Source of the DNA: Deltaproteobacteria bacterium
Lineage (GTDB): Bacteria; SAR324; NAC60-12
Reading direction: 5' to 3'
Assembly: GCA_038150265.1 (NCBI GenBank)
Contig: JAYOTF010000008.1
Location: forward strand, 28,595-92,594
Length of the DNA: 64,000 nucleotides
Shown: piece after piece, positions 1-64,000 of the stretch
Layout of the letters: each line of letters starts with the position of its first letter
How positions within the stretch are numbered: the first letter of the stretch is position 1
Translations under genes and position numbers: made by a program
The notes under the pieces: generated by a model
Database searches by the model: none
What the model saw: the letters and a program-made list of their open reading frames with translations, nothing else
What the model was told of the DNA's origin: nothing

Positions 1-1
1 C

Positions 2-82
2 CCGGTTCAGCCGGGAGATGTCCTGCAGGGCACAATTGACGGCCTGGACCCGCTGCAGTTCACGATCACGGATCCGGAGTAG
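2..82 (+). CDS. 3' end of a probable fumarylacetoacetate hydrolase family protein (partial, runs off window start)
   Basis: Frame 2 translates PVQPGDVLQGTIDGLDPLQFTITDPE*, resembling the FAA-hydrolase C-terminus. Not in the ORF track. Confidence 0.55.
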   Translation, partial: PVQPGDVLQGTIDGLDPLQFTITDPE

Positions 83-97
83 GCCCTGCGGCGGAGG

Positions 98-1141
98 TCA
101 CACGGAGGGACCCGCCTTGCCGGCTTCCACAAAGGCGAGGACGTTTTCGAAGGGAGAGCGTTCAAGCAGACCGTGGCTGAGGTTGAGGATGTGGTGGGTC
201 CCTCCGCCGGCTTTCAGGCAGGCCTGGACGGCTGCTCGGACCTGTTCGGGAGTGCCATCTGCCAGGATGGTGTTGTCCACATTGCCCTGAAAGACCATCT
301 CCGGCGCCTGCTGCTTCGCGGCCTCAAGGTCCACGCAGTGCCCCACGCTGAGCGCCTGGGCTCCGGATGCCAGCATCAGGTCGAGGTGTGGGCATTCCTT
401 GGCAAACAGCAGGGTCGGTCCCTGATCGGCAAGTGCCTGGAAGATGCGCTGGTGCGTCGGCAGGGCGAGGGCTTCATACAGCTCCCGAGGCAGCACATCG
501 GCAAATGACTCAAACAGCTGCACCGCCTGGGCTCCGGACTCCAGCTGATAGCGGAGGTAGTCGATGGTGAGGTCGGTGAGGGTGTCCAGGAGCGCCTGAG
601 TGACCTCCGGCTCCTCGACCAGGAAGCGCAACACGGCTCCGGGGTCGCGGTTGGGGCTTCCGCCGGCAATGAGGAAGAACGCCAGGGTAACGGGGGCACC
701 CGCAAATCCAAGCACCGGCAGGGCGCCGTCCAGCCGGTGGTGCAGGCCCTGAAGGATCGCGCCAACATGCGGGAGGTCCCGGGCCGAGTTCAGGGGCCGG
801 AGGGCTCGGACCTGCTCCAGCGTCCGGATGGGCGCCTCGAGCTGCGGACCCGGCCGGAAGTAAAAGGGCGCGCCGATGGGCGTCAGCGGGGTGAGGATGT
901 CCTGAAACATGATGATCGCATCAACCCCAAAACGCTGGGGCAGCAGCGAGATCTCAATGGAACGCTCGACATCGGCAAACAGCGCTTCAAGCGCCCGCCC
1001 ATCCTCTGCCCGCAGACGACGGTACTCCGGATCGGTGCGTCCGGCCTGACGCATCATCCAAACGGGCACCCGAGGAACCGGCTGGCGCTGGAGGACACGG
1101 AGGATCAGGTCATTTTTCAGAGGGGGCGGTTGAAAGGGCAT
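98..1141 (-). CDS. hemE: Uroporphyrinogen decarboxylase
   Basis: PVWMMRQAGR, DAIIMFQDIL, GFAGAP, QGNVD and ILNLSHG motifs. ATG at 1141 preferred to the ORF-track start at 1162. Confidence 0.9.
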   Translation of the reverse strand: MPFQPPPLKNDLILRVLQRQPVPRVPVWMMRQAGRTDPEYRRLRAEDGRALEALFADVERSIEISLLPQRFGVDAIIMFQDILTPLTPIGAPFYFRPGPQLEAPIRTLEQVRALRPLNSARDLPHVGAILQGLHHRLDGALPVLGFAGAPVTLAFFLIAGGSPNRDPGAVLRFLVEEPEVTQALLDTLTDLTIDYLRYQLESGAQAVQLFESFADVLPRELYEALALPTHQRIFQALADQGPTLLFAKECPHLDLMLASGAQALSVGHCVDLEAAKQQAPEMVFQGNVDNTILADGTPEQVRAAVQACLKAGGGTHHILNLSHGLLERSPFENVLAFVEAGKAGPSV

Positions 1142-1271
1142 GAGGGCTTCTTCTGGTTGCAAGGGGGCCGTGGCCAGTCCGGTAACTGGCAGCCGGCAGA
1201 GGGAATTTGACTGTTCACAGCGATTATCCTAAACCCATACGATCGACTTCAAAACCATTTTCTGAAGAGTT

Positions 1272-2171
1272 ATGCCGCCTGCCACCCCGAATTGCCTCCG
1301 CTGTCACGACTCCCACGTCTTTGTGCACACCGTCTCCGGCCAGCGTTACGCCCGGGCGCGTCTGTGTGACTGCACCCCCAAGCCGTGCCCCACCTGCGAG
1401 GGGTCCGGGTTTGTGCTGACGTACGATGAACAGGACCGGGAGACGGCGATGGCGTGTCCGGATTGCAGCCGCCTGAAGCGCCGCCTTGAGCTGTACAACG
1501 AGGCACGCATCCCGAAACGGTACCTGCACAGTCGCCTTGACCCGCAGGATCAGGATGGAGAAAACTCGGCGGCCTTCGGATTGCTGGAAGTGACGCTCCG
1601 GAACCTGCCCCACCACCTGCAGCAAACCGAATCGCAGCAGGTGGAGCGAGACCTCAAGGGGCTGGTGCTGATGGGGCCTCCCGGAACCGGAAAGACGCAC
1701 CTGATGGCCGGATTCACCTACCGCTGCACCGTGGAGCTGGGCATCTCCTGCGTGTTTCAGGGCTTCTCGGAACTGCTTCATGAACTCCGGCAGGGCTACA
1801 ACAACAACCAGTCCGACATGGAAATCATTGGCCCGCACCTGCAGGCGGATGTGCTGATCATTGACGACCTGGGGAAGGGCCGAAACAGCGACTGGGAGCT
1901 GAGCATCCTGGATACCCTCATCTCGGAGCGCTACAACCGGGACCGGATGATCATGATCACCACCAACTACACGGAGCATGAGGAAAGCACCCTGCACGAG
2001 CGCGTCCTCAAGCGCGAGCGCAACGAGCCGGCGGCTCAATTCATGGCCGATACGCTCCGGACGCGTGTGGGCGAGCGCATTTACTCACGTCTGCGGGAGA
2101 TGTGTTACTTCGAGGAGCTGCTGGGACGGGACCGCCGACAGGCTGCTGAAACCGAGTCGCTGAGCGTTTGA
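1272..2171 (+). CDS. DnaC/IstB-like AAA+ ATPase with Cys-rich N-terminal zinc-binding region
   Basis: Walker A GPPGTGKT, Walker B VLIIDDLG, ITTN, RIYSRLREMC. N-terminal CxxC/CxC/CxxC/CxxC. Confidence 0.8.
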   Translation: MPPATPNCLRCHDSHVFVHTVSGQRYARARLCDCTPKPCPTCEGSGFVLTYDEQDRETAMACPDCSRLKRRLELYNEARIPKRYLHSRLDPQDQDGENSAAFGLLEVTLRNLPHHLQQTESQQVERDLKGLVLMGPPGTGKTHLMAGFTYRCTVELGISCVFQGFSELLHELRQGYNNNQSDMEIIGPHLQADVLIIDDLGKGRNSDWELSILDTLISERYNRDRMIMITTNYTEHEESTLHERVLKRERNEPAAQFMADTLRTRVGERIYSRLREMCYFEELLGRDRRQAAETESLSV

Positions 2172-2172
2172 C

Positions 2173-2790
2173 ATGACCCTTGAAGCCTGGCTCACTTACC
2201 TGGCTGCCACCACGGTGCTGCTGGCGATCCCCGGACCCACCATTTTGCTGGTCATCAGCTACTCGCTCGTCCGGGGCCGGGCCGCCACGCTGCCGCTGAT
2301 CCTGGGCGTGACGCTGGGGGACCTGACCGCCATGACGGTCTCGTTTCTGGGGCTGGGGCTGCTGCTGCAAACGGCTGCAGTGCTGTTTCAGGGACTGAAG
2401 TGGATCGGGGCCGCTTACCTGGCCTACCTGGGCTTCCGGATGTGGCGGGAGCCGGTTGAGACGCTGGAAGACGCCGACGCCGAGGCCCTCCGGAAGTCTG
2501 GGCGAGAGATGCTCTGGCGCTCCTGGCTGACGACGGCGCTCAACCCCAAGGGCATCGTGTTCTTCCTGGCGTTTGTTCCGCAGTTCCTGGTTCCAGACCA
2601 GCCGTTTGTGCCTCAGGTCGTGGAACTGGGCGCCACCTTCCTCTTCCTCGCGGCTCTGAACGTGTTGGCCTACGCGCTCCTCGCCTCACGACTGAGCGGA
2701 TTCATCCGCCGTCCACAGACCCGGACCTGGCTGAACCGCGCCGGCGGAGGCCTGCTGCTCGGGGCAAGCGCCGCGACGGCCGCCACCTGA
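2173..2790 (+). CDS. LysE/RhtB family amino-acid exporter
   Basis: IPGP motif, LKWIGAAYLAYLG, LNPKGIVFF, hydrophobic 205 aa. Confidence 0.9.
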   Translation: MTLEAWLTYLAATTVLLAIPGPTILLVISYSLVRGRAATLPLILGVTLGDLTAMTVSFLGLGLLLQTAAVLFQGLKWIGAAYLAYLGFRMWREPVETLEDADAEALRKSGREMLWRSWLTTALNPKGIVFFLAFVPQFLVPDQPFVPQVVELGATFLFLAALNVLAYALLASRLSGFIRRPQTRTWLNRAGGGLLLGASAATAAT

Positions 2791-2805
2791 TTTCCCCAAA
2801 AAATT

Positions 2806-4347
2806 TTAACTGACGGGCCGGTCGAGGCTCCGGTACTGGATTGCTTCTGCAACATGGGTGGGGGTGACCCCGCCGCTGCCCTCGAGGTCGGCAATGGTCC
2901 GGGAGACCTTGAGGATGCGGTCATACGCCCGGGCGCTCAGGCCCATGCGAGAGATGGCATTTTCCAGCAGTCCCTGTGCCTGCGCATCAAGAGGCACGAG
3001 GTCCTCCAGCTCCCGCCGTGTCATGGCCGCATTGGAGCGGGTGGGCGAGTTCCGGAAGCGTTCCTGCTGGCGCTGGCGGGCGGCCACCACCCGCTCCCGG
3101 ATCTGTGCGCTGCTTTCACCGCGTCGCGTTTCAGCAAGGTGTGCGTACTCCACGGCTGGAACCGTTAGCTGCAGGTCAATGCGGTCCAGCAGAGGACCCG
3201 AAATGCGGGCCCGGTACTTCTGAACCTGTGGAAGCGGACACTGACAGTCGTGAGGACCGCTTCCGGGAGGGGTGCCGAAGTAGCCACAGGGGCATGGGTT
3301 CATTGAGGCCACCAGCATGAAGCTGCACGGAAATTCAAGCGTCATGGCGGCCCGGGCAATCGTGAGGCGCCGGTCTTCCAGAGGCTGCCGCAGCAACTCC
3401 AGAACCGTCCGAGGAAATTCCGGAAGCTCATCGAGAAAGAGGACCCCGTTGTGGGCCAGGGAGATCTCCCCCGGACCCGGAATGCTGCCTCCGCCCACCA
3501 GCCCTGCCTGCGAAATCGTGTGATGGGGACTCCGGAAGGGACGTTCGGCAAGGAGCGGCACCTCGGCCGGAAGCAATCCGGCAATGCTGTGAATCTTGGT
3601 GCACTCCAGTGCCTCGTCAAACTCCAGCGGAGGCAGGATGCTGCCCAGCCGTCGGGCGAGCATGGTCTTGCCAGAGCCCGGGGGGCCCAGCATCAACAGG
3701 TTGTGCCCTCCAGCGGCAGCGACTTCCATGGCCCGCTTGACGGCCTCCTGCCCCTTCACATCCTGAAGGTCCTCTGCTGAGGAGCGTTGATTCTGAAAGA
3801 GCGCCAGCGGGTCAATCGGTGACTCCGGAAAGTCGGCTTCTCCCCGGAAGAAGGCGAGCACATCAGCGAGCGACTGGACCGGAACCCGCCGCACTCCGGA
3901 AACCACGGCGGCTTCGGCTTCATTGGCCGCGGGCAGAATGAGCTGATGCAGCCCCGCTTTTTGAGCCGCCAGCGCAATGGGGAGGATGCCCCGGATGGGA
4001 CGCGTCTGGCCATCAAGCGCCAGCTCGCCGACCACCAGTGACTGCTGGAGCGCCTCTGGAGGAACCAACCCTGCTGCAGCCAGCAGCGCAACGGCAATGG
4101 GGAGGTCGAAGCCGGAGCCTATTTTTCGCAAATCTGCCGGAGCCAGGTTGACGACCATCTTCCGGACAGGAAGGGCGCAACCCGAGTTGCCGATTGCTGC
4201 AAGGATGCGGTCTCGGCTTTCCCGGATGGTGCCATCGGGCAGGCCGACGATGGTGAACTGACTGAGGCCAATCGAGAGGTCCGCCTCGACTTCAATGAGG
4301 TGGGCTTCAATGCCGAGCACCGTTGCCGAGTAGGCCTTGGCAATCAT
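2806..4347 (-). CDS. comM: YifB/ComM Mg-chelatase-like AAA+ ATPase
   Basis: IVGLPD, NLAPADLRK, GPPGSGKTM, PFRSPHHT, LAHNGVLFLDE, SGPLLDRID. Start at MIAKAYS (4347). Confidence 0.93.
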   Translation of the reverse strand: MIAKAYSATVLGIEAHLIEVEADLSIGLSQFTIVGLPDGTIRESRDRILAAIGNSGCALPVRKMVVNLAPADLRKIGSGFDLPIAVALLAAAGLVPPEALQQSLVVGELALDGQTRPIRGILPIALAAQKAGLHQLILPAANEAEAAVVSGVRRVPVQSLADVLAFFRGEADFPESPIDPLALFQNQRSSAEDLQDVKGQEAVKRAMEVAAAGGHNLLMLGPPGSGKTMLARRLGSILPPLEFDEALECTKIHSIAGLLPAEVPLLAERPFRSPHHTISQAGLVGGGSIPGPGEISLAHNGVLFLDELPEFPRTVLELLRQPLEDRRLTIARAAMTLEFPCSFMLVASMNPCPCGYFGTPPGSGPHDCQCPLPQVQKYRARISGPLLDRIDLQLTVPAVEYAHLAETRRGESSAQIRERVVAARQRQQERFRNSPTRSNAAMTRRELEDLVPLDAQAQGLLENAISRMGLSARAYDRILKVSRTIADLEGSGGVTPTHVAEAIQYRSLDRPVS

Positions 4348-4493
4348 GGAGACCGGAGGGGAGTGGGTTGAAAACAGTCCAGCGTGCAAACGCGGGTAAG
4401 TCGGCAACCCCCAGGCGGGAAGGGGTGGCAACCGGAAGAACCGGCTGCCGAAGCAATCAGGGGCTCAGAGACGGAAGGCTGAGCAGGAGCGGG

Positions 4494-7088: not shown

Positions 7089-7263
7089 CCGTTCCTAACG
7101 TCTGAGCAAAGATTCGGCGTCTGCCTTACCCTCAGATGCAAGCGGGGGTCCACGCCTTGGCCTCCGTCTGGTTTCCGGCCCTCAAATCGCAATTGACTTT
7201 GAGTTTCTCAGAGGGTCGCTTACGCTGAGCTGTTTCCTGACTGGTCCCTGATTTTTGGTTGGC

Positions 7264-10524: not shown

Positions 10525-10539
10525 AGCGGTTCCTGCCAG

Positions 10540-13261: not shown

Positions 13262-14968
13262 TTAGGGGGCCCTCCAGACACCGTGTTCCTCCAGCAGGTC
13301 AATCAGGCGATCAACCGCCTGCTCCGAGGGGATGTTGCGGGCCACCTGCTCCTGCCCCTTGTAAAGGTGCACCTTGCCCGGCCCGGCTCCAACGTACCCG
13401 AAGTCGGCGTCGGCCATCTCTCCGGGGCCGTTCACCACGCAGCCCATGACGGCGATCTTGACCCCCTTGAGGTGCGCGGTGCGCTCCTTGATGCGGGCGG
13501 TGGTGGTCTGGAGGTCAAAGAAGGTCCGTCCGCAGGAAGGGCAGGAGATGAAGTCTGCCTTGTACAGCCGCACCCGAGTTGCCTGCAGGAGCATCTGGGC
13601 AAACTCGACCTCGGGCGCCTCCGGATTGGGGGTTGGACACACGAGGGCCTGCAGCAGGCCTTCGGCAATCAGCGTGCCCAGCTCCGCAGCAAGGCCAAGG
13701 GGGAGCTGTTCGGGTTCCAATGCCGGAAGCACCACTCCGAGTGGCCAGGGGGTGTGGGCCTGATCGAGCTGCTGGCGCCACTCCCGGATGACGGAAAGCG
13801 GGTGGTCGGTGGTCAGCAAAAGCAGCTCCGGACGGTCCGGGTCAACAGGAGCAGCGGGGCTGAGCAGGCGGAAGGGAAGGACCCCAGCCTGATCCTTTTG
13901 CAAAAGGCCATCAAAGACATCGCTGCCCAGTCCGGGGATGATGTAGTCGCTGAGCGCCAGCAGGCGGAAGGGCGCGGCGCCTCCGACTGTGAGGCCGTTC
14001 AGGTCCACAGCCGTGGTGACGGTGGCGTGGGGCCCTTCCGGGATCAGCTCGCCCTTCTGCAGGGTTCCGGTGAAGGAGGCTTCCTGGCGCGAGGCGGTGG
14101 GAGCCTGCCCCTGGATTTCTTCAAGAATTTGCCGAGCCGCCGGAATTTCGTTCTCTGCAGGTTCCGTCAAGGAGACCCGGATGGTATCGCCCAAGCCATC
14201 GGCAAGGAGCCCCCCGATGCCCACGGCGCTTTTGATGCGTCCGTCTGGACCAAAGCCGGCTTCGGTCACGCCCAGGTGCAGTGGGTAGTCCATGCCCTCT
14301 TCATCCATGCGCTTCACCAGGAGCCGATAGGCCTGCATCATCACCATCGGGTTGGACGACTTCATGGAGAGGACGATGTCGTGGTAGTCGTGCTTCCGGA
14401 AGAGGCGGAGGAACTCCAGCGCCGACTGCACCATGCCCTCGGGGGAGTCGCCGTAGCGGTTCATGATGCGGTCGGAGAGTGACCCGTGGTTGGTGCCGAT
14501 GCGCAAGGCCCGTCCGTAGCGCTTGAGGTTGGCAATCAGGGGCAGGAGCGACTCCTCAATGCGCTCCAGCTCTTCGGCATACTGGGCATCGGAGTACTCC
14601 CGGACTTCAAACTTCTTGCGGTCGGCGTAGTTGCCCGGATTGATCCGGACCTTTTCCACAAACTCGCAGGCGCCAACGGCCAGGAGGGGGTTGAAGTGGA
14701 TGTCGGCAATCAGGGGGCGGGTGATGCCCCGCTCGCGCATGCCCGCATGGATGCGACCCAGGGCTTCCACGGACTTCTGGTTGGGAGCCGTGACTCGAAT
14801 CATTTCACACCCGACGGCATCCAGGCGGACAATTTCGGCAAGGCAGGCGTCGACATCGGTGGTGTCTGAGGTCAGCATCGACTGGATGCGGATCGGTTCC
14901 TGCCCGCCAACCGCAAGGTCTCCAATGCGGACGGTACGGCACGATCGGCGAAAGGGCTGCAAGGACAT
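13262..14968 (-). CDS. ispG: HMBPP synthase, long (inserted-domain) form
   Basis: IQSM, ADIHF, RINPGN, RIGTNHGS, PLHLGVTEAG, GDTIRVSLT, ISCPSCGR, MGCVVNGPGE. Confidence 0.95.
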   Translation of the reverse strand: MSLQPFRRSCRTVRIGDLAVGGQEPIRIQSMLTSDTTDVDACLAEIVRLDAVGCEMIRVTAPNQKSVEALGRIHAGMRERGITRPLIADIHFNPLLAVGACEFVEKVRINPGNYADRKKFEVREYSDAQYAEELERIEESLLPLIANLKRYGRALRIGTNHGSLSDRIMNRYGDSPEGMVQSALEFLRLFRKHDYHDIVLSMKSSNPMVMMQAYRLLVKRMDEEGMDYPLHLGVTEAGFGPDGRIKSAVGIGGLLADGLGDTIRVSLTEPAENEIPAARQILEEIQGQAPTASRQEASFTGTLQKGELIPEGPHATVTTAVDLNGLTVGGAAPFRLLALSDYIIPGLGSDVFDGLLQKDQAGVLPFRLLSPAAPVDPDRPELLLLTTDHPLSVIREWRQQLDQAHTPWPLGVVLPALEPEQLPLGLAAELGTLIAEGLLQALVCPTPNPEAPEVEFAQMLLQATRVRLYKADFISCPSCGRTFFDLQTTTARIKERTAHLKGVKIAVMGCVVNGPGEMADADFGYVGAGPGKVHLYKGQEQVARNIPSEQAVDRLIDLLEEHGVWRAP

Positions 14969-15140
14969 GAAGGGACTCTCGAAACAAATCGTAAAATCAA
15001 AATCTTGAGCGGAGTCTCTTTCACTTTCAAGCGGAACTCCGGAGGAGGGGGTGCTTCCGGAAGCGGAAGCTTGTGCTTTGAGGCGCCTTCCCGCTATTTT
15101 GGAGGGCCTTTTTCTTCTCCATTTTTTCAGGAATTTTGTG

Positions 15141-15953
15141 ATGTCCCCTCCTGCTTCTCGACTCCCCAGCCTCTACCTGCCTCATGGCGGAGGCCCGTGC
15201 TTCTTCATGGACTGGACGATGGGGCCTCCCGACACGTGGAATCGCATGCAGACGTGGCTGGAAGGCTTGCTGGACACGCTTCCGGAACGTCCCACTCGGC
15301 TGCTGGTGATCTCGGCTCACTGGGAAACCCCCGTGGTGCAGGTGACCACGCATCCCGAGCCCGAGTTGATTTATGACTACTACGGCTTTCCTCAGCACAC
15401 CTACCAACTGCAGTGGCCTGCTCCCGGTGATCCCGCCTTGGCGCAGCAGGTGCTGACGCTGCTGGAAGAAGCCCGGATTCCTGCAGAAGCCAACCCGACC
15501 CGAGGCTGGGACCATGGGGTGTTCATCCCGTTCAAGGTCGCCCTTCCGGAGGCGGACCTGCCGACGGTGGCCGTGTCGTTGCGGGCAGATCTGGACCCGG
15601 CGTTTCACTACCAGGTGGGACAGGCGCTGCGGCCCCTCAAGGATCAGGGGGTGCTGATCGTGGGGTCAGGCATGAGCTACCACAACCTGAAGCGGATGTT
15701 CTCCGGATCGCTGCTGGAGGAATCGGTGGCCTTTGATGGCTGGCTGCAGGAGTGGTCGCAGCTTCCGGAACCGGAGCGTCAGCAGAAGTTGGTGAACTGG
15801 TTGCAGGCGCCTCAGGCTCGGCAGTGCCATCCACGTGAAGAGCACCTGGCCCCCCTGTTTGTGGCGGCAGGGGCCAGCTCCGGAGGCCAGGCGTGGTGCC
15901 CCTTCACCGATCAGGTCATGGGCGCTCAGGTGTCAGCGTTTGCGTTTGACTGA
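15141..15953 (+). CDS. DODA/YgiD-type class III extradiol dioxygenase
   Basis: LPHGGGP, VISAHWE, YDYYGFP, RGWDHG, GSGMSYHN, HPREEHL. Confidence 0.9.
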   Translation: MSPPASRLPSLYLPHGGGPCFFMDWTMGPPDTWNRMQTWLEGLLDTLPERPTRLLVISAHWETPVVQVTTHPEPELIYDYYGFPQHTYQLQWPAPGDPALAQQVLTLLEEARIPAEANPTRGWDHGVFIPFKVALPEADLPTVAVSLRADLDPAFHYQVGQALRPLKDQGVLIVGSGMSYHNLKRMFSGSLLEESVAFDGWLQEWSQLPEPERQQKLVNWLQAPQARQCHPREEHLAPLFVAAGASSGGQAWCPFTDQVMGAQVSAFAFD

Positions 15954-23819: not shown

Positions 23820-23857
23820 AGACGAAAAACAGTATGGAAGTTGAAAAGTGACGAGGC

Positions 23858-23885
23858 GAGGCCCTTTGCCGGAGCAAGGGGCCTC
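23858..23885 (-). terminator. Hairpin downstream of soxK
   Basis: GAGGCCCTTTGC-CGGA-GCAAGGGGCCTC, 11 of 12 pairs. A pyrimidine-rich tract follows on the minus strand. Confidence 0.45.
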
Positions 23886-23893
23886 CGGAGGGA

Positions 23894-24196
23894 TCAGAAG
23901 CGGGGGCCCGCGTCTTTCTGGCTCATGGCTTGAGCGTATCCCAGCTCTCCCCAGTCCCGAACCATGATCACCAGCTTGCAGGCTTCTTCATAGTTGCCTG
24001 CCTTGGCTGCGGCTTCCGCATCCTTCATGGGGTTGGGCAGGGTGGCCATCCACCATTCGCCTCCCACCGAGGCGGCCTTCTTGCGAGACGCCTCTGCTTC
24101 CGCGTGGTACTGCTTGTAGGTGTCCTGGTTGCACTGAGCCAGGGCGACTCCTGAGGTCAGGAGGGCGGCTCCAAGCAATAGGGTGAGTTTTTTCAT
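23894..24196 (-). CDS. soxK: SoxAX-binding protein SoxK (SAXB)
   Basis: 100-aa exported protein between soxA and soxB with RKKAASVGGEW and GELGYAQA motifs. Confidence 0.8.
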   Translation of the reverse strand: MKKLTLLLGAALLTSGVALAQCNQDTYKQYHAEAEASRKKAASVGGEWWMATLPNPMKDAEAAAKAGNYEEACKLVIMVRDWGELGYAQAMSQKDAGPRF

Positions 24197-40514: not shown

Positions 40515-40533
40515 CGTCCGGAGCCTCCGGACG
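40515..40533. repeat. Inverted repeat built from two TCCGGA sites, downstream of adk
   Basis: CGTCCGGAG-C-CTCCGGACG. Confidence 0.6.
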
Positions 40534-40553: not shown

Positions 40554-41786
40554 ATGCCGCACGACGACATCCGGATGCGGGGCTTTCTGCGGCGGACTTC
40601 CCTTTCAGATGCGCTCCTCCTGCTGGAGCCGCATAGCCTTCCCCTTGAAGCAGAAGCGGTTCCGGTCGAACAGGCGTGGGGACGCGTGCTTGCCGAACCG
40701 CTGACGGCTCCGATCAACGTTCCTCATTTTCACCGTGCTGCCATGGACGGGTATGCCGTCCACGGAGAAGATACCTTTGGCGCCGGTCGTTACCAGCCCC
40801 TGCCGCTTCAGGTGCGGGGGCAATCGCTCCCGGGTCGTCCGTTTGTGGGAACCGTCCAGAGGGGCGAGGCGGTGCAGATCATGACGGGTGCCCCGCTTCC
40901 GGAAGGCACCAATGCCGTCTTGCCAGCCGAGTGTACCGAGCAAATCGGCGACCTGGTCAACGCGCTGGAAGCCGTCCCGCCCTGGCGACACGTCAGCCGC
41001 ATTGGAGAGGACCTGAAAGCAGGAGGCCCGTTGCTTCCGGAAGCACGACGGCTGAGGCCTCAGGACCTGGCGTTGCTGGCGTCGGTAGGCCAGACCTCGG
41101 TCCTGGTACGGCGCCGTCCGACGGTGGACCTACTGACAACGGGCTCCGAACTGCTTCCGCCGGGAAGGGCTCCGGACGGTCCTCAAATTGTGGACAGCAA
41201 CTCGGTGATGCTCCCGCCACTGGTGGAGCGCGACGGCGGGGTCTTGCTCCGAAGGGTTCGTCTTCCAGATGATCGAGCGTCTCTCCGAGCGGCGTTGCAG
41301 GAGTCGGAGGCGGATGTTGTGCTGGTCACCGGCGGCACCTCGGTTGGCGTGGAAGATCAGGCGCCTGCGCTGGTTGCCGAGTTGGGAACGCTGCTCATGC
41401 ATGGCCTCTCGCTGAAACCGGCCGCCCCGACGGGCTTTGGCCGCATGGGAACGCGTCGGGTGTTTCTGCTTCCAGGCAATCCGGTGTCTTGCTTCTGTGC
41501 GTACGACTGCCTCGTGGCCCAGACCCTCCGAAAACTGGGCGGCCGGTCGCCAGAAGGTCCGTATCGGGCGCAGAGCGTGCGGTTGCAGACAAAGGTGGCC
41601 TCGCAAATTGGCCGTGCCGAGTACGTTCGCCTTCGGGTGGAGGGAACGGACGCGTTTGTGGTGGCGTCCGGAGGCGCGTCGATTCTTTCCTCAACCACCC
41701 GCGCGGATGCCTTCTTTCTGACAGAAGAACAGTCGGAGGGGCACGCCGTGGGAGAGTGGATCACGGTGTGGAGGTACGACGCGTGA
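40554..41786 (+). CDS. moeA: Molybdopterin molybdenum/tungsten transferase MoeA
   Basis: AAMDGYAV, IMTGAPLP, TGSEL, TGGTSVG, LPGNPVS. Confidence 0.92.
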   Translation: MPHDDIRMRGFLRRTSLSDALLLLEPHSLPLEAEAVPVEQAWGRVLAEPLTAPINVPHFHRAAMDGYAVHGEDTFGAGRYQPLPLQVRGQSLPGRPFVGTVQRGEAVQIMTGAPLPEGTNAVLPAECTEQIGDLVNALEAVPPWRHVSRIGEDLKAGGPLLPEARRLRPQDLALLASVGQTSVLVRRRPTVDLLTTGSELLPPGRAPDGPQIVDSNSVMLPPLVERDGGVLLRRVRLPDDRASLRAALQESEADVVLVTGGTSVGVEDQAPALVAELGTLLMHGLSLKPAAPTGFGRMGTRRVFLLPGNPVSCFCAYDCLVAQTLRKLGGRSPEGPYRAQSVRLQTKVASQIGRAEYVRLRVEGTDAFVVASGGASILSSTTRADAFFLTEEQSEGHAVGEWITVWRYDA

Positions 41787-49358: not shown

Positions 49359-50393
49359 CTACAGCAGGTTCTTCATCATCTCTTCCGCCCAAATGGAGCG
49401 GTCGCTCCGAGAAGTCGGGCTGCTGCCGTCATCTTCCTCTGAGTCCAGTCCGGACATAAAGGCCCCAATCTCCATCGCATCATCGGGAATCAGCTGGTAC
49501 AGGACCGGGTCGTTTTCATCGGGAAGCGGCTGCAGCGGCCCCGCCAGGTGCTCGGCCATCTCATCGACGTAGTCCGGAACCTCGGTGCAATCGTCTGGAA
49601 CCACCGGTGCTTCAGGTGCTGCTTCCCGAGGCTCTGGGGCAACCGCTTCCGGAGGAAGGGCTTCCTCAAGCGGAACGAGCCCCACAGACTCTGGTGCTGG
49701 CGGTTCCGGAGGCCTTGTGGCGGGGGGAGCAGGAGTGGGCTTCGGGCGAGGACGGGACGCTGCTTCTGGAGAAACCTCCGGAGGCTTCGGTGCCGTGGCC
49801 CTGGCCGTCGCCGGCGATTTCGATTGGGCCGTTCGTTGGGGCTGAGGGCCCTTGGCTCGGGTTTTTTGAGGAAGGGCTGGAGGCGGTTCCGGAGTGTGAC
49901 GGCTTCCGGCGTCCGGAGCCTCTTCCTGAAACAGGGAACCCTGATTGCCCCGGCTTCGTTTGGATGAGCCACGCTTCAGGGTCTTGAGGATGGTCCGGAC
50001 CTGACGGGATCGACTGAGCTGGGCCAGGATGAGGCGCTGGTACTGTTCCAGCAGTTGCGGCCCCTCCCGGTGGTAGAGCGAGATCCAACGCACCGGGCGG
50101 TTGCTGTGAATCAGGGCTTCGCCTGTGAACAGCGGGAGGTGTCCGGAAGGAGGATGCTCATCATGCTCCACCAGCACACAGCCCTCAAAGCAGGTCTCCG
50201 GATTGGGAAACCGTTCGCGTAGAGGCGCGCGCATCGGGAAGGCGTTGGGGTGCTCCTTGAGCAGGCGACCAAGGTGGTCAGGGCGCCGGCCTTCCTGCCA
50301 TGACTCGACCAGGTGGCGGTCACACTCCCCCGGCTTCCGGCAAACCGGACACTGCAGTTCTTTGGGGTGGTGAATGACCTTGGGGGCCAGCAT
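49359..50393 (-). CDS. Hypothetical protein: Cys/His N-terminal domain and Pro-rich linker
   Basis: CPVC-x5-C-x2-H, long P/A/E-rich tract, acidic tail. Fills the gap between the DMT gene and miaB. Confidence 0.55.
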   Translation of the reverse strand: MLAPKVIHHPKELQCPVCRKPGECDRHLVESWQEGRRPDHLGRLLKEHPNAFPMRAPLRERFPNPETCFEGCVLVEHDEHPPSGHLPLFTGEALIHSNRPVRWISLYHREGPQLLEQYQRLILAQLSRSRQVRTILKTLKRGSSKRSRGNQGSLFQEEAPDAGSRHTPEPPPALPQKTRAKGPQPQRTAQSKSPATARATAPKPPEVSPEAASRPRPKPTPAPPATRPPEPPAPESVGLVPLEEALPPEAVAPEPREAAPEAPVVPDDCTEVPDYVDEMAEHLAGPLQPLPDENDPVLYQLIPDDAMEIGAFMSGLDSEEDDGSSPTSRSDRSIWAEEMMKNLL

Positions 50394-52222: not shown

Positions 52223-52310
52223 AGGATTCCTTACGAGAAAAAGGGATGATCCGAAAGGACCTATTTTGCCCCGGATGCCCCTGCTTTTTCAAGGGCTTTC
52301 CGGGACGGAA

Positions 52311-54131: not shown

Positions 54132-54217
54132 GTAGGGGATCGTTGAGGCAATCAAACCGACCAGGAACGAAGTGCCGGGCACACAGGTCGGGAAAAATCA
54201 TCCGGAGTGAATCAGCC

Positions 54218-54247
54218 AGTATACGGAAGCCCACCCGGCACCTGCAA
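54218..54247 (-). promoter_or_regulatory. Sigma70 promoter of typA
   Basis: Minus strand TTGCAG-N18-TATACT. Confidence 0.55.
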
Positions 54248-54379
54248 GGCAGGTTTGGCGGAGGGGGTGATTTTCAGGGGGAGCCGAGAGGAGGGGAAGA
54301 AGGGCGCCAGGCCCGATGGGTTCCGGGGAAGCAGGCGGTACCGCCGGGGAGCCTCAGCGGCTCCCTGAAGGGGAACTGC

Positions 54380-55390: not shown

Positions 55391-55393
55391 GGC

Positions 55394-56338: not shown

Positions 56339-56383
56339 CGTACAAGTCTCCTTATCAAAAAGAGGGAAGAGGCGAGGGAACCG

Positions 56384-57679
<1,296 letters not shown>

Positions 57680-57690
<11 letters not shown>

Positions 57691-58588: not shown

Positions 58589-59610
58589 TTTCCCATCTCC
58601 TTCAAGCGGGCGTCCAGCCGTGGATAAACGCGCCGGGCATTGCCCTCATAGACCTGATACTGCTCTTCCGGAGTCAGGTTGAGCGCGTCAATGTAACGCT
58701 TGGTGTCATCAAAGTAGTGGCCGGTCTCCGGGTCAATCCCCCGGACGGCGCCCACCATTTCGGAGCCGAAGAGGATGTTGTCGAGGTCAATCACCTGAAA
58801 GAGCAGGTCAATGCCCGGCTGGTGGTAGACACAGGTGTCAAAGAAGACGTTCTTCATCACATGCTCTGCCAGAGGGGGCTGCTTCAGCATGTCAGCGAGC
58901 CCCCGGTAGCGTCCCCAGTGGTAGGGCACAGCGCCGCCGCCGTGCGGAATGATGAACCGCAGGGTGGGGAAGTCCTTGAAGAGGTTCCCCTGCAGAAACT
59001 GCATGAAGGCGGTGGTGTCGGCATTGAGGTAGTGGGCACCGGTGGCGTGGAAGTTGGCATTGCAGGATCCGGAAACGTGAATCATCGCCGGAACGTCCAA
59101 CTCGACCATCTTTTCATAGAAGGGATACCAGCTGGGGTCGGTGAGCGGCTGAGAGGTCCAGTGTCCGCCGGAGGGGTCCGGGTTGAGGTTGCAGCCCACG
59201 AATCCAAGCTCCTGGACGCAGCGCTCCAGTTCTGCAATGGAGTGGGCAATGGAAACGCCAGGAGACTGGGGAAGCTGACAGACGCCGACAAAGACCTCCG
59301 GATAGAGGTCCACGACCCGTTTGATGAGGTTGTTGCAGGCCTGGGTCCAGCGTTGCGAAACGCCTTCATCGCCGAGGTGGTGCGCCATGGCCGAGGCCCG
59401 AGGCGAGAACAGCGTCAGGTCGGCCCCACGTTCCCGGAGCAGGCGGAGCTGGTTCTGCTCCACACTTTCCCGAATCTGATCATCTGAAATCGACGCCTCC
59501 TGAGGGTCTGGAAGAGCCGGGTCCTGAAACGCGGCCAGCTGGGCTTCCCGGAAGTGCTGGTGGGGCTCGGGCGCGGTGGTGTAGTGCCCATGGCAGTCAA
59601 TGATCAACAT
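58585..59610 (-). CDS. ligJ: 4-oxalomesaconate hydratase (LigJ/PmdE)
   Basis: IIDCHGHYTTAP, SPRASAMAHH, PHGGGAVPYHWGR, FDDTKRY. Confidence 0.93.
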   Translation of the reverse strand: MLIIDCHGHYTTAPEPHQHFREAQLAAFQDPALPDPQEASISDDQIRESVEQNQLRLLRERGADLTLFSPRASAMAHHLGDEGVSQRWTQACNNLIKRVVDLYPEVFVGVCQLPQSPGVSIAHSIAELERCVQELGFVGCNLNPDPSGGHWTSQPLTDPSWYPFYEKMVELDVPAMIHVSGSCNANFHATGAHYLNADTTAFMQFLQGNLFKDFPTLRFIIPHGGGAVPYHWGRYRGLADMLKQPPLAEHVMKNVFFDTCVYHQPGIDLLFQVIDLDNILFGSEMVGAVRGIDPETGHYFDDTKRYIDALNLTPEEQYQVYEGNARRVYPRLDARLKEMGK

Positions 59611-59701
59611 GAAGGCTCCTTCAGGAGAGAGGCGTGTTGCGGGAGCGCCGCCGGCTCAGGAGCCAGCGAGGGAGAACGGGTTGCGAGGCCTTGAGCCGGG
59701 T

Positions 59702-60793
59702 TCATGAACGCCTCCAGAGGCTGGAAGGCACCAGCACCTCGCCCCGCATGAGCAGGCGGGCGGTCCGGAGCAGTCCGGCTCGAGTGACCTGAAGCGTCCC
59801 CCCTTGCTGCTGAAGCTCCAGCCCGACGGTGAAGAAGCCGGTGGGGTGTTCCACATCAAGGGTGTGGCGTCCGGAAGAGAACGTTCGGTTGACCAGAGGC
59901 GCAGCAACTGAATCCGGAAGCACACAGGCGGTGGCAACACTGACGGCGCCGAGCACGCCAATGGCTTCATGCACCCGGTGCGGAATGAAGGTCCGGGTTG
60001 CCACCACGCCTCCTTGCTGGGCGGGAGCAATCAGGGACAGCTTTGGAACGGTCTTGCTGGAGACGTCCCCGAGGTTCATGGCGTGGCCAGCCTGGAGCCG
60101 GATGGACTCCAAGCGGGCCTTCAGGTCGGCATCGGCTTCCAGCGCTTCCGGAGTCTCAGAGCCCGTCTTGCCGAAGGCCTCTGCTTGGAGCAAAACGACG
60201 GGCATGCCGTTGTCGATGCAGGTGACCTCGACGCCATCGAAGGCATCGCGCTCCTTCCCGGTGGGCAGCAGGGCCCCGCAGCTTGAGCCAGCGGTATCGA
60301 GGAAATCCAGCAGCACGGGGGCCGCGGTTCCGGGAACGCCATCGATGCGAGCCGCTCCGGTGTACTGAACCTGGCCCTGAGGGGTCTGGACCTGTGCAAC
60401 AGCAAAGGTGTTGGTGTTGACCATGCGGATGCGGATTTCGGTCACCTCTGCCTGAGCCGGCACCAGCTTCTGCTCCACGGCAAAGGGCCCAACCGCCGCC
60501 AGGATGTTGCCGCAGTTCTGGCTCTCGCTGACCTCTGCCCGGTCCACGGCAACCTGAAGGAAGAGGTAGTCCACATCGGCATCCGGATGCGATGAGGCCG
60601 AGACCACCCCCACCTTGCTGGTAAGCGGGTGGGCCCCGCCAACGCCGTCAATCTGGCGCTCATCCGGAGACCCCATGGCCGCGAGCAGCACCTGGTTGCG
60701 CCGCTCCGGATCTTCCGGAAGATCTTCTCTTCGAAAGAGGAGGCCCTTGGAGGTGCCGCCTCGCATCAGGTAGGCGGGAATGGCGGTCTGCAT
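59702..60793 (-). CDS. ligU: 4-oxalomesaconate tautomerase (LigU/GalD, PrpF family)
   Basis: MRGGTSKG, QIDGVGGAHPLTSK, NCGN, EHPTG, RTARLLMRG. Confidence 0.9.
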   Translation of the reverse strand: MQTAIPAYLMRGGTSKGLLFRREDLPEDPERRNQVLLAAMGSPDERQIDGVGGAHPLTSKVGVVSASSHPDADVDYLFLQVAVDRAEVSESQNCGNILAAVGPFAVEQKLVPAQAEVTEIRIRMVNTNTFAVAQVQTPQGQVQYTGAARIDGVPGTAAPVLLDFLDTAGSSCGALLPTGKERDAFDGVEVTCIDNGMPVVLLQAEAFGKTGSETPEALEADADLKARLESIRLQAGHAMNLGDVSSKTVPKLSLIAPAQQGGVVATRTFIPHRVHEAIGVLGAVSVATACVLPDSVAAPLVNRTFSSGRHTLDVEHPTGFFTVGLELQQQGGTLQVTRAGLLRTARLLMRGEVLVPSSLWRRS

Positions 60794-61482
60794 CAGCGCC
60801 TTCCCTGGTACTTGAGGTACTTCAGCCCCTTGTTCCGGAGGCGTTCACGCATCTTGTAGAGGTCGAGACCAAGGACTCCGGAGGCGAGCGTTTCGCGTTT
60901 TCCGGCCTCATTGGCCAGCCGCTCCTTGGCCCGCTCCAGGGTCGACGCCACTTCATCCCGCTGCACGACCACGACGCCGTCATCATCGGCGACCACCAGG
61001 TCTCCGGGATGAATCAGGGCGCCTGCGCACACCAGGGGCACGTTCACCTGCCCAAGGGTTTCCTTGACGGTGCCCTGGGCTGAGATGGCTCGGGACCAGA
61101 CCGGGAAGCCCATTTCGGTCAGGGTGGCAACGTCTCGGACGCCGGCATCAATGACGAGGCCCCGGACGCCCCGGGCCATTAAGGAGGTGGCCAGCAGGTC
61201 GCCGAAGTAGCCATCTTCACACGGGCTGGTCGGGGCCACCACGAGGATGTCTCCGGGTTGGCACTGCTCCACGGCAACATGAATCATCCAGTTGTCTCCG
61301 GGAGGCACTTCGCAGGTGACGGCGGTTCCGGAGATCTGGGCCGGCCGATAAATCGGGCGCATGTAAGAAGCGAGGAGGCCCTTGCGTCCCTGGGCTTCAT
61401 GGACGGTTGCCACATCCAGCGTTTCAAACTCGGCAGCAAGCGCTGCATCCAGTCGGGGAATGTCTGTGTATACCACCGCCAT
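60793..61482 (-). CDS. ligK: 4-carboxy-4-hydroxy-2-oxoadipate aldolase (LigK/PmdF)
   Basis: [35 protein letters not shown]. Confidence 0.93.
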
Positions 61483-61628
61483 GGGGCCTCCTTATTGAGT
61501 AGAAGCAGGAAGAAACGGATCGGCCTGTTGGGTTCCAGAAGGCGATTTGCGGGTGGAAGGGCTTCTGGAAGAGGCGCGAGCGGTTTTTGTCAGGGAGTAA
61601 ATAACCTCTTGTTTCCGGTGCGTCAACC

Positions 61629-62546
61629 TCAATCTTCAGCAGGCGTCCGGATGCGTGCTACCGACATGCGCTTGCCCGTGGCAACGACGGCGACGACGAA
61701 GCCGGCAAACAACCAGGTCTCGAGGCTGACTTCCTCTCCGAGTAAAGCAGAAGAGAAGAAGAGCGTAAAGAAGGGCATGAGCAGCTGAACCTGGCTCACA
61801 CGAGCGACGCCTCCGAGATTGAGACCCTTGTACCAGGCAAAGAAACCAAACAGCTGGCTGAACAGCGCCACATAAAGGAAGCCCGTCCAACTGGTCCACG
61901 GCACCGGCTCAATCAGCAGGCTCTGAGTCCAGAGCGTCAGGGGCAGCAGCAGGGGGATCCAGGCAACGAGTGTCCAGCAGATGGTTTGCCAGCCGCCCAG
62001 CTGGCCGCTCAGCTGAGCGCCCTTGACGTAGCCGTATGAGGCAGACAGGACCGCGCCGAGGAGCAACCAGTCGGCTCCCTGGAGCGTGCCGCCTCCTTCT
62101 CGGAGGGAGAAGAACACGACGGCCCCACTGCCGAGCAGTCCACACATCCAGAATCCAGGGGACGGACGCTCCCCAAGCATCAGGGCGCCGAGGATGGCGG
62201 TGCTCAGGGGCAGGATGCCCAGTACCACGCTGCCATGAACCGCTGGAACGAGCTGCATGGAGACGGTCATGAAGAAGGGGAACCCGATGATGACGCCCAG
62301 GCCCGTCTGCCACACGCCCCACCACTGTTGACGTGTGGGCCAGGGCTGCCGCGTGGTTCGGAGGATCACCAACCCGACACTGGCCGCCAGCAAGGCCCGT
62401 CCGGATGCCACGAAGTAGGGCGAAAGGTGAGCGACCGCCAGCCGGGTCATCGGAAGCGTCAGGCTGAACATCAGCATGCCGAAGATGCCAAACATCCAGC
62501 CACGCCATTCATCAGTTTGTGGGACCACGAGGAGCAAGCGCTTCAT
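61629..62546 (-). CDS. DMT/EamA family transporter
   Basis: FSLTLPMTR, GERPS, WYKGL, VSQVQL, 10 TM segments. Confidence 0.9.
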   Translation of the reverse strand: MKRLLLVVPQTDEWRGWMFGIFGMLMFSLTLPMTRLAVAHLSPYFVASGRALLAASVGLVILRTTRQPWPTRQQWWGVWQTGLGVIIGFPFFMTVSMQLVPAVHGSVVLGILPLSTAILGALMLGERPSPGFWMCGLLGSGAVVFFSLREGGGTLQGADWLLLGAVLSASYGYVKGAQLSGQLGGWQTICWTLVAWIPLLLPLTLWTQSLLIEPVPWTSWTGFLYVALFSQLFGFFAWYKGLNLGGVARVSQVQLLMPFFTLFFSSALLGEEVSLETWLFAGFVVAVVATGKRMSVARIRTPAED

Positions 62547-62831
62547 GAAGGGTTCAGAGGCTCAGGGAAGGGGGGTGAAGAACCGGGATTCCGGCCCGTC
62601 CGGTTTTGGATCTGCGGGAAGACGTTAGCAACTTGCCGGGGGAGTACAATGCAAAACTGGAAGGCGTGGCAGCGGGCAATCGACGCTTGACGCCGGCGGC
62701 ACGCCTGTGAAATGCTCATGCCCTTCGCTCTGGCAAGGCTGGAGCGTCCCCAGTAACTGAGTGAAATCCAGTCGTGTTTGCCCCTGCAGGAGTCACCCTG
62801 GGTTTGCTCTTCTCAAGAAGGAACCGAAACC

Positions 62832-64000
62832 ATGAACGATGCTTATCTCTGTGATGCGATCCGGACCCCGATCGGGCGATACGGCGGAGCCCTTTCAGGC
62901 GTCCGGGCGGATGACCTGGGAGCCATTCCGCTCAAGGCACTTCAGGAGCGCAACCCTCAGGTGGATTGGGGCGCGGTGGATGAGGTGATTTACGGGTGTG
63001 CGAATCAGGCTGGCGAAGACAACCGGAACGTCGCCCGCATGGTCACCTTGCTGGCGGGGCTCCCGACGTCGGTTCCCGGGACCACGGTGAACCGGTTATG
63101 TGGCTCCGGAATGGATGCCATCGGTCTGGCCGCCCGGACGATCAGGTCGGGTGAGGGAGAGCTTCTGGTTGCGGGAGGAGTGGAGAGCATGAGCCGGGCT
63201 CCCTTTGTGACGGCAAAGGCGACCCAGGCGTTCTCGCGTCAGGTGGAGACCCATGACACCACCATTGGTTGGCGTTTTGTGAATGCCCTTTTAAAGGAAC
63301 AGTACGGGATTGATTCCATGCCGGAGACGGGAGAGAACGTGGCGGAGCAATTTGGCATCTCCCGGGACGATCAGGACGCGTTTGCCTTCCGGTCGCAGCA
63401 GAAGGCGGCACGGGCCCAGGCGGCCGGGATCTTTGAGCAGGAGCTGACTCCTGTCGTGATTCCGCAACGCAGGGGGGAGCCAGTGATGGTTCGGCAGGAT
63501 GAACACCCCCGTCCGGAGACAACGCTGGAAGCGCTGGCTCGTTTGCCGACTCCTTTCCGTCAGGGAGGAACCGTCACTGCCGGGAATGCGTCGGGTGTGA
63601 ATGATGGGGCGTGTGCCGTCCTGATTGCTTCGGAGGCCGCAATGAAGCGTTACCAGCTCACGCCCCTGGCGCGGATTGTTGGGATGGCGACCGCCGGAGT
63701 GGAGCCCCGGATCATGGGGTGGGGGCCAGCACCGGCGTCCCGGAAGCTCCTTCAGCGCGTGGGGCTGACCATTGAACAGATGGATGTCATTGAGCTGAAC
63801 GAAGCCTTTGCGAGTCAGAGCCTGGCCGTGCTGCGGGACCTGGGAGTGCCGGAAGATGCGGAGCAGGTGAACCCGAACGGCGGCGCAATTGCCCTGGGAC
63901 ACCCGCTGGGGATGTCAGGAGCCCGTTTGGTGACGACGGCTGCGTATGAGCTGCGGCGATGCGGGGGGCGTTATGCTCTTTGCACGATGTGCATAGGGGT
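62832..64000 (+). CDS. pcaF: 3-oxoadipyl-CoA thiolase (PcaF/PaaJ), partial, runs off window end
   Basis: Hand-translated from ATG 62832: [59 protein letters not shown]. Absent from the ORF track because there is no stop in the window. Confidence 0.9.

Follow-up and report, generated by a model that had tools for sequence, protein, structure and literature searches.

TCCGGA as a highly iterated palindrome in one family of SAR324, with helical spacing between its copies

The hexamer TCCGGA is strongly over-represented in a 64,000-bp stretch of SAR324 DNA (contig JAYOTF010000008.1 of assembly GCA_038150265.1, positions 28,595 to 92,594; the whole stretch analyzed here is called the window) and in the genome from which that stretch comes. 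The pressure on this word is weak per site, genome-wide, and dependent on the rotational setting between neighboring copies, and within one phylum the word swings between hyperabundance and avoidance. We interpret TCCGGA as a highly iterated palindrome (HIP) of one SAR324 family, held at about 40% of its possible places by a uniform, sequence-specific pressure at the DNA level that may come from a protein sensing two copies at once. We judge the chances that this interpretation is right to be about even.

The genome of the window (G000, with the window at G000:C8:28595-92594) has 3.39 Mb in 87 contigs and is 97.8% complete. Genus g1 consists of G000, G001, and G002, the last being the closest relative of G000, and the sister genus g19 consists of G050, G051, and G052; genus g11 includes G021, G026, G028, and G036, and g4 includes G005. 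Genes were called by a home-made method (iterated open reading frames [ORFs] and a codon score), which gave 2,725 genes covering 87% of G000. The mirror word AGGCCT served as the control for TCCGGA density across genomes.

Abundance of TCCGGA

The window holds 199 copies of TCCGGA, compared with 21.1 expected from base composition at 61.6% G+C (9.4-fold), and these are evenly spread, with 11 to 19 copies per 5-kb bin. G000 as a whole carries 9,711 copies in 3,393,712 bp (2.86 per kb), with densities of 2.94 per kb in coding and 2.34 per kb in intergenic DNA. The observed-to-expected ratio (O/E) in G000 is 8.69 at Markov order 0 and 7.57, 3.95, 2.39, and 1.22 at orders 1 to 4. TCCGGA is the top hexamer of this genome; the next two words are its own overlaps (5.0 and 4.75), and the first unrelated word stands at 4.18. 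Other palindromes of the form NCCGGN, which an earlier reading of the window from its letters (the sequence-only reading) had proposed for comparison, are under-represented in G000 (ACCGGT, 0.67; GCCGGC, 0.68; CCCGGG, 0.67), so the enrichment is not shared. In all four genomes sampled, TCCGGA is the top palindrome at 7.6- to 9.3-fold, with the next palindrome at 4.1-fold or less.

Such an excess could arise secondarily from codon usage, dipeptide usage, or base composition, or from copies of a repeat element, as GGA and TCC are common codons and the O/E at Markov order 4 is only 1.22. However, the low value at order 4 reflects the fact that TCCGG pentamers mostly belong to TCCGGA already (9,711 of 18,191 have A next). 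When synonymous codons were shuffled within genes (20 replicates), which preserves the amino acid sequence, the 8,648 coding copies observed compared with 2,079 ± 36 in the shuffles (4.16-fold), and the excess was seen in all three frames (3.9-fold for TCC GGA, 3.3-fold for xTC CGG Axx, and 5.1-fold for xxT CCG GAx; coding counts over the three frames, 2,032, 2,377, and 4,239). DNA outside the gene calls contains 1,016 copies versus 134 expected (7.6-fold), and enrichment persists from 41% to 61% G+C. Thus, neither of the outcomes that the sequence-only reading had named as refuting it was seen, namely, an O/E near 1 under a codon- and dipeptide-preserving null or similar enrichment of all NCCGGN hexamers. 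The flanks of the copies are near background beyond ±1 and the spacers of paired copies are unrelated; therefore, the copies are not repetitive extragenic palindromic sequences (REP) or miniature inverted-repeat transposable elements (MITE), and an element of this type, which the presence of 89% of the copies within genes also speaks against, was rejected. The composition or repeat by-product explanation is already refuted, and the probability that we leave to it is negligible.

By our own gene calls, the window copies fall in all three reading frames (TCC GGA, 49; xTC CGG Axx, 46; xxT CCG GAx, 87) and in intergenic DNA (17), as the sequence-only reading had described. The flank preference that it reported, a pyrimidine at −1 and a purine at +1, is real but weak in the window (126 and 132 of 199 copies, respectively). 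In G000, T (0.32) and C (0.30) are favored at −1 and A or G at +1, and the top octamer is TTCCGGAA, at 27-fold. A separate observation concerns a 400-kb sample of G001 (loci L149 to L168), where C is favored at −1 (0.41 versus a background of 0.30) and T reaches only 0.23, a −1 preference unlike that of the other genomes.

To describe occupancy, we define a permissible site as a coding place where the protein sequence allows TCCGGA. In G000, 8,648 of 20,991 permissible sites (41%) carry the word, with occupancy rising to 76 to 82% in cheap contexts (V-R-T, F-R-T, and I-R-T) and falling to 3 to 6% where a rare AGR arginine codon is required. The distribution is uniform: among 632 windows of 5 kb, the mean is 14.45 copies with a dispersion index of 1.14, and a single window has four copies or fewer. 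Over 1,834 genes, per-gene occupancy is exactly binomial (standard deviation of z = 1.00), and it has no relation to codon bias (rho = 0.045) or to GC3. The odds that a permissible site is occupied are about 6.4 times those expected from the shuffles. We infer that each site carries a scaled advantage, in 4Nes or the equivalent for conversion, of about 1.9. Occupancy is 0.23 to 0.31 in the first 120 nt of ORF calls, 0.41 to 0.43 deeper, and 0.38 in the last tenth of genes; the start-proximal dip may be real avoidance or an artifact of over-long ORF starts, and we put no weight on it.

Helical spacing and its phase

Distances between copies within genes of G000 were compared with a null in which occupancy was permuted 300 times over the permissible sites within each gene and frame, and with a second null additionally weighted by amino acid context. 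The pair-distance spectrum has a single peak, at 10.4 bp and phase zero, with a power of 699 compared with a null maximum of 151 for any period in any permutation; with the context-weighted null, the peak lies at 10.5 bp (power of 721 versus 155). Raw genome-wide peaks occur at 19, 31, 41.5, 51.5, 62, 72, 84.5, and 94 bp, with deep troughs at 12 to 16 bp. Over 20 to 400 bp, the best period is 10.46 bp, and phase is held to about 320 bp while the amplitude declines from 0.32 to about 0.09. The helical period of TCCGGA was found in none of 10 control word sets, including its one-letter neighbor CCCGGA/TCCGGG, and CAGCAG/CTGCTG, which have similar pair numbers. The oscillation in G000, faded by 320 to 380 bp, also returns at 440 to 500 bp (relative amplitude of 0.14, power/noise of 8.3) and then fades again.

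Spacing at the helical period recurs in other genera with lineage-specific phase. In G051 (g19; 793 kb, 2.30 copies per kb, O/E of 7.6), the period is 10.5 bp with peaks at 27, 37.5, 47.5, 58.5, and 68 bp, and spacings of 19 to 23, 30 to 34, and 41 to 42 bp are nearly empty (0.08 to 0.3 of the mean). Against the permissible-site null (300 permutations), its power is 26.8 versus a null maximum of 21.6 at an offset of −5.2 bp, and its ratio of integer to half turns is 0.57 (null range, 0.71 to 1.30). In G021 (g11; 400 kb, 43% G+C, O/E of 9.3), copies are spaced in phase at a period of 10.6 bp (power of 31.4 versus noise of 1.4); 13 of its pairs lie at 21 bp, where 1.05 are expected, and 10 lie at 33 bp, with unrelated spacers.

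Phase classes among 79 genomes were assigned from genome-wide TCCGGA pair counts at distances of 29 to 33, 35 to 39, and 40 to 44 bp, listed here in that order for 10 genomes:

G000 (g1): 152/106/165
G002 (g1): 84/82/95
G001 (g1): 50/105/55
G050 (g19): 14/76/18
G051 (g19): 17/101/23
G052 (g19): 2/33/2
G021 (g11): 190/22/101
G026 (g11): 181/46/86
G028 (g11): 170/42/88
G036 (g11): 71/6/30

With the null share of G000, same-face spacings are over-used (in phase) in 11 of 14 g11 genomes, in G005 of g4, and weakly in G000 (P = 0.0085), and they are avoided (anti-phase) in all three g19 genomes, in G001, and weakly in G011. Phase was not significant in any f7 genome. By our own arithmetic, the half-turn window is at about 1 relative to random placement in both phase classes, and the integer-turn windows are at 2- to 7-fold in g11 and at 0.05- to 0.5-fold in g19 and G001. 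Therefore, the same-face arrangement is the special one, and the pressure on it is of opposite sign in the two classes.

Distribution among relatives

Among the 45 family genomes, TCCGGA occurs at 2.2 to 2.9 copies per kb in g1 and at 1.4 to 2.3 per kb in g19, which is 14 to 30 times the mirror word AGGCCT. Densities are 0.12 to 2.1 per kb in g11 (at about 41 to 43% G+C), where the three lowest values come from bins that are 51 to 57% complete, 0.7 to 1.1 per kb in g4, and about 0.5 per kb in g6, g3, and g10; no excess was found in g2 (nine genomes), g5, g7, g8, or g9. Enrichment is maintained over a 20-point shift in G+C, with an O/E of 9.3 in G021 (43%), 7.6 in G051 (57%), and 6 to 11 in loci at 41 to 42%.

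Across the 79 genomes of the phylum, density spans 0.02 to 2.9 copies per kb. Family f7 has both genera at 3- to 8-fold and genera that nearly purge the word (for example, 31 TCCGGA versus 1,584 AGGCCT, and 15 versus 1,435 in a 3.1-Mb genome), and g14, g16, g31, and g32 also nearly purge it. The near-purge suggests TCCGGA-specific restriction in those genomes. The purged genomes are G080 to G084, G078, G066, G067, G015, G017, and G020, with TCCGGA at 0.01 to 0.25 of AGGCCT.

Two observations on other palindromes were made along the way. In the 793-kb sample of G051 (loci L109 to L148), 6-bp palindromes are generally avoided (median O/E of 0.27; AGGCCT, 68 copies; CTGCAG, 58; CAGCTG, 41), and TCCGGA, with 1,820 copies, is the lone strong exception. 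TGATCA ranks second or third among over-represented 6-bp palindromes in G000 (3.1-fold), G001 (4.1-fold), and G051 (2.6-fold); Elhai 2015 (PMC4390886) reports it as the top hexamer in marine picocyanobacteria.

Turnover between orthologous regions

Retention in orthologues was measured in this one 64-kb window against one relative, G002. The whole window is syntenic with G002:C14:25-64232, at 82.7% nucleotide, 89% amino acid, and 52.7% four-fold-site identity. Where the amino acids of a permissible site are identical in the two genomes, G002 retains TCCGGA at 66 of 125 sites (53%), and other synonymous hexamers at like sites are kept at 44 of 178 (25%, with 0.28 expected from two four-fold sites). 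Thus, copies are kept about twice as well as other synonymous hexamers; site conservation in orthologues was a check that the sequence-only reading had proposed. Copies are protected about twofold yet gained and lost fast, a pattern that either weak selection or a conversion-type drive would give. The description of TCCGGA as a HIP-like genomic signature of this lineage is borne out by its rank as top hexamer, its occurrence in all frames and in intergenic DNA, its enrichment in relatives at 41 to 61% G+C, and this roughly twofold retention between orthologous regions.

Copies in the window

The hand counts of the sequence-only reading were exact: 32 copies in 1 to 10 kb, 31 in 10 to 20 kb, 29 in 54.4 to 61.5 kb, and 7 in positions 49,560 to 50,010. 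The intergenic copies that it named, at 15038, 23884, 40517, and 40526, do fall in gaps between ORFs. These features are as follows:

1..64000, no strand: TCCGGA copies, 199 in all, with 182 in genes (three frames) and 17 intergenic by our own gene calls
15038..15043, no strand: intergenic copy in the gap between ORFs 13262-14968 (minus strand) and 15051-15953 (plus strand), overlapping a GGAGG-like stretch (CTCCGGAGGAGG)
23884..23889, no strand: intergenic copy in the gap 23820-24182
40517..40531, no strand: two intergenic copies, at 40517 and 40526, 9 bp apart, just upstream of an ORF starting at 40554
49573..49999, no strand: local cluster of 7 copies in 427 bp inside ORF 49359-50393 (minus strand), at 49573, 49648, 49705, 49777, 49888, 49912, and 49994

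The two copies at 40517 to 40531 sit in a 17-nt near-palindrome that could be an operator- or hairpin-like site.

Searches for methylases and repair proteins

One explanation for the abundance of TCCGGA is methyltransferase-linked biased repair (Elhai's ratchet), in which an orphan methylase would mark TCCGGA or CCGG, methyl-directed mismatch repair or very-short-patch repair would convert near-cognates, and abundance would be a by-product. In cyanobacteria, each HIP is accompanied by a cognate methylase, according to Elhai 2015 (PMC4390886). The same source reports that variants of HIP1 concentrate on the outer letters; likewise, when a copy in G000 and its counterpart in G002 differ by a single letter, that letter is one of the outer two in about half of the cases (25 of 50 and 19 of 39). 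The pressure on TCCGGA is also uniform and expression-independent, as that of a repair drive would be.

However, no C5-methylase (PF00145) and no Vsr (PF03852) were found in G000, which is 97.8% complete, and the same searches were positive in control genomes. Full-length PF00145 was found in none of the three g1 and none of the three g19 genomes, and g11 yielded only fragments, in 3 of 18 genomes searched. G000 also lacks matches to MutH, to PF02384 (type I/IIG N6 methylase), and to a true D12 methylase, the only D12 match being a weak one to the C51 gene described below. The one-transition neighbors of TCCGGA, which the sequence-only reading had proposed to test for depletion, are not depleted in G000 (TTCGGA/TCCGAA, O/E of 1.34; TCTGGA/TCCAGA, 2.57; median of all hexamers, 0.87). 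In our interpretation, the excess is not driven by m5C deamination with Vsr-type repair. Searches for the CCGG-family restriction folds PF07832 and PF09015 gave no match, but they had no positive control anywhere and carry little weight; no histone-fold protein (PF00808) was found.

Two N6_N4-type genes with SPPY motifs are present in G000, on contigs C45 and C51. The C51 gene (G000:C51:248-1387, locus L002; full length in G002, L007:3368-5560) is an orphan N6_N4 methylase-like gene that is conserved across the order, with DPFMGGGT followed by SPPY, SPPF, or NPPY. Its nearest solved chains are DNA cytosine-N4 methyltransferases, matched by motifs only, and its Protein Atlas entry gives the N6_N4/UPF0020 family only. 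Such a conserved orphan gene is what the repair explanation would call for, yet its distribution does not follow enrichment. Within the family, 34 of 45 genomes carry it, among them genomes of the non-enriched genera g2 (7 of 9), g9, and g5. It also occurs in 17 of 18 f2 genomes, including the strongly TCCGGA-depleted G017, and it is found in none of 17 f7 genomes, some of which are 3- to 8-fold enriched. Among 79 loci around C51 homologues in many phyla, TCCGGA is enriched only in SAR324 relatives and in one weak haloarchaeal case (3.1-fold). As a presence/absence determinant, the C51 gene was thus rejected as sufficient.

The C51 protein has a charged, low-complexity N-terminal extension whose length rises with TCCGGA density by genus, a point that can be counted for the repair explanation but is a lead only, as the genera are not independent. 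The extension comprises at least 300 amino acids (aa) of R/D/E repeats in g1, 160 to 225 aa in g19, 110 to 205 aa (K-rich) in g11, 100 to 140 aa in g4, and about 8 to 95 aa in non- or weakly enriched genera. At the C45 locus (L001:35-3159), the stop codon of a retron-type reverse transcriptase gene (NF038233, E value of 3.9e-59) overlaps the start of the gene for a 258-aa SPPY beta-class DNA methylase, and a 311-aa ORF without any family follows. This retron-linked methylase was rejected as the driver, as its orthologue was found only in G001 and not in G002, g19, or g11.

Overall, no cognate methylase was found, and N4- or N6-methylation of the word would still be compatible with the data. 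TCCGGA has no G-C step for Elhai's GmeC rule, and the ratchet alone does not predict helical phasing. We consider methyltransferase-linked repair unlikely. The sequence-only reading had listed methylation-coupled or very-short-patch repair among possible drivers, and this part of its list found no support, with PF00145 and Vsr absent from G000 and no methyltransferase gene tracking enrichment; its other suggestion, selection as a protein-binding signal, is a better fit to the helical spacing.

A protein that may sense two copies

The pressure on TCCGGA is specific to the sequence and uniform, acts weakly at each site and without regard to translation or expression, and responds to helical phase over tens of turns. 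The simplest source of such a pressure would be a protein that recognizes the palindrome and senses a second copy on the same face. This agent, a protein or a complex, would probably sit on the palindrome as a dimer and would sense two TCCGGA copies at once when they share a helix face. Same-face arrays would be favored in g11, in G005 of g4, and weakly in G000, and they would be selected against in g19 and G001. Such a protein may only read the word, which would then be under weak selection as a tag for chromosome architecture or self-recognition, or it may also write it, through a conversion or repair drive stimulated by two sites.

Several points weigh against this interpretation. The amplitude in G000 is small, at 1.18-fold at integer turns and 0.89-fold at half turns with the context-weighted null, and periodicity of AA/TT or A+T in the flanks of the copies is no stronger than around eight control palindromes. 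The closest relative, G002, shows no significant phase (P = 0.9), nor do G012, G030, G024, G048, and G049, and the anti-phase signal of G001 is significant in genome-wide counts and not in a 400-kb permutation test. Phase tests of the other genomes borrow their null share from G000, every genome compared is a metagenome bin, and the gene calls come from the home-made ORF and codon-score method. Conservation of position is modest: 82 of 191 aligned copies are kept in G002 (43%, with 33.7% across hexamers in general), which places TCCGGA 55th among 228 frequent hexamers in conservation, and the probability that a site is occupied in G002 is 0.51 if it is occupied in G000 and 0.20 if it is not, which drive would explain as well as selection. 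To our knowledge, phase inversion has no precedent, and the reader of TCCGGA is a hypothetical protein.

A more specific possibility is a sequence-directed bacterial chromatin, in which an abundant protein dimer on TCCGGA would polymerize or bridge along one helix face, and the copies would script where arrays form (g11, g4, and G000) or are forbidden (g19 and G001). The phase inversion would then record a recent switch in the geometry or cost of the protein, and the C51 methylase-like gene with its growing charged tail may belong to the same system. We offer this version tentatively, with a probability well short of even.

The spacing could instead reflect intrinsic DNA mechanics without a specific protein, if TCCGGA were bendable or kinked and selection tuned curvature or supercoil geometry through copies placed in phase (adding) or out of phase (cancelling). 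A 10.46-bp period that is coherent over about 300 bp is consistent with this, and both signs of phase would be expected depending on whether curvature is wanted or unwanted. Curvature is nevertheless a weaker rival than a protein that senses two copies, because only TCCGGA, and not its one-letter neighbors or other G+C-rich palindromes, is enriched and phased and because no A+T or AA/TT phasing accompanies it in the flanks. Nor does it account for several genera of the same phylum purging the word to 0.01 to 0.25 of the mirror control. We regard it as very unlikely.

TCCGGA might also be a self-recognition word for DNA uptake or recombination, like uptake signal sequences (USS), DNA uptake sequences (DUS), or Chi, kept by biased uptake and recombination (molecular drive). 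HIP1 is reported to increase natural transformation, an effect that depends on methylation (Kamoku and Nielsen 2024, preprint), and its abundance correlates with type IV secretion system proteins, and the authors propose it to be a recognition sequence for DNA uptake (Rodriguez-Cruz et al. 2026, PMC13756078). TCCGGA has several features of this kind, namely, a density of 2.9 per kb, weak pressure per site, fast turnover with about twofold retention, sharing by related species, and uniform spread. In contrast, the uptake sequences known so far, like Chi, have an orientation, exceed TCCGGA in length, and are not palindromes, and a 6-mer gives little discrimination per copy. We know of no helical spacing or phase reversal between sister lineages for uptake signals. 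The uptake or recombination proposal for HIP1 is a live analogy, one that does not predict phasing. We think uptake or recombination quite unlikely as the explanation here.

Significance

In cyanobacteria, HIPs have remained an unsolved problem over three decades. TCCGGA is an independent case in another phylum, with another word, and with no C5-methylase found of the kind that anchors current models. It also offers a structural clue, as the rotational setting of one copy is “known” to others as far as about 30 helical turns away; related lineages follow opposite spacing rules for the same word, and others in the phylum purge it. The range from 0.02 to 2.9 copies per kb in one phylum and the occurrence of both phase classes in a single family, indeed in a single genus, are comparative handles that HIP1 lacks, and with them phylogenetic profiling could name the responsible protein. 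In practice, TCCGGA is a strong signature for binning and host assignment of SAR324 DNA. Enzymes of the BspEI/Kpn2I type cut TCCGGA, and they would cut SAR324 DNA of the G000 type about every 350 bp unless it is modified.

Comparison with known systems

The signature of Dcm/Vsr very-short-patch repair in Escherichia coli is an excess of CCWGG and a deficit of CTWGG. TCCGGA is likewise a short palindromic word of the methylation type whose frequency is shaped at the DNA level; it differs in that neither C5-methylase and Vsr genes nor a deficit of deamination products was found in G000, where the T-containing neighbors are undepleted, and in that its excess is far larger. With USS/DUS and Chi, TCCGGA shares thousands of copies per genome, including copies in genes, weak pressure per copy, and specificity for a group of species. 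USS and DUS are oriented words of 9 to 12 letters that a competence receptor reads, whereas the unit here is a 6-bp palindrome with flanks low in information, and we know of no report of helical phasing between copies of USS/DUS or Chi.

Repressors that bind cooperatively on one helix face, and SeqA-type proteins that read paired GATC sites, likewise require whole numbers of helical turns between two short palindromes. Those cases involve a few operators or hemimethylated GATC pairs, whereas TCCGGA is genome-wide and occupies 40% of permissible positions. MutH was not found in G000, and no SeqA search was made.

The closest known kind is the cyanobacterial HIP. A literature search covering few subscription journals and no HIP supplements found no account of TCCGGA as an iterated palindrome, none of HIPs spaced by the helical turn, and no paper pairing SAR324 with TCCGGA, in line with the statement of the sequence-only reading that it knew of no description for this lineage; among the matches listed for SAR324 with “palindrom”, titles and the beginnings of abstracts dealt with other topics. 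The text of Elhai 2015 (PMC4390886) does not mention TCCGGA, and Xu, Lawrence and Durand 2018 (PMC5861425) describe HIP periods of 10 to 90 kb in a text that contains neither “helical” nor “helix”.

In the sense of those two papers, TCCGGA is an outlier palindrome with HIP-like density, occurrence in all frames and in noncoding DNA, and above-neutral conservation (in one window and one relative). HIP1 (GCGATCGC) and the alternate HIPs (GGCGCC, rCCGGy, and GCsGC) are likewise G+C-rich palindromes and by far the most over-represented words of their genomes, at about 0.5 to 2.5 per kb compared with 2.9 per kb for TCCGGA in G000. Both kinds are genic in all frames and also intergenic, clade-wide with exceptions, conserved above neutral, and variable on the outer letters. 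TCCGGA differs from HIP1 in phylum and word and in being a hexamer rather than an octamer, although the alternate HIPs of Elhai 2015 are also 5- and 6-mers. The descriptive features of a HIP are present. As to the methylase association, no cognate C5-methylase was found in the most enriched SAR324 genomes, the one N6_N4-type gene also occurs in non-enriched and depleted relatives and is absent from enriched f7, and the word lacks the G-C step of the GmeC model. What is new here is the phase inversion, the clade-wide tests for methylases and for C5-methylase and Vsr, the retention in orthologues, and the phylum-wide swing between excess and purge. Unlike the cyanobacterial HIPs, TCCGGA is spaced periodically at 10.5 bp with a phase specific to the lineage, and several genera of its own phylum nearly purge it.

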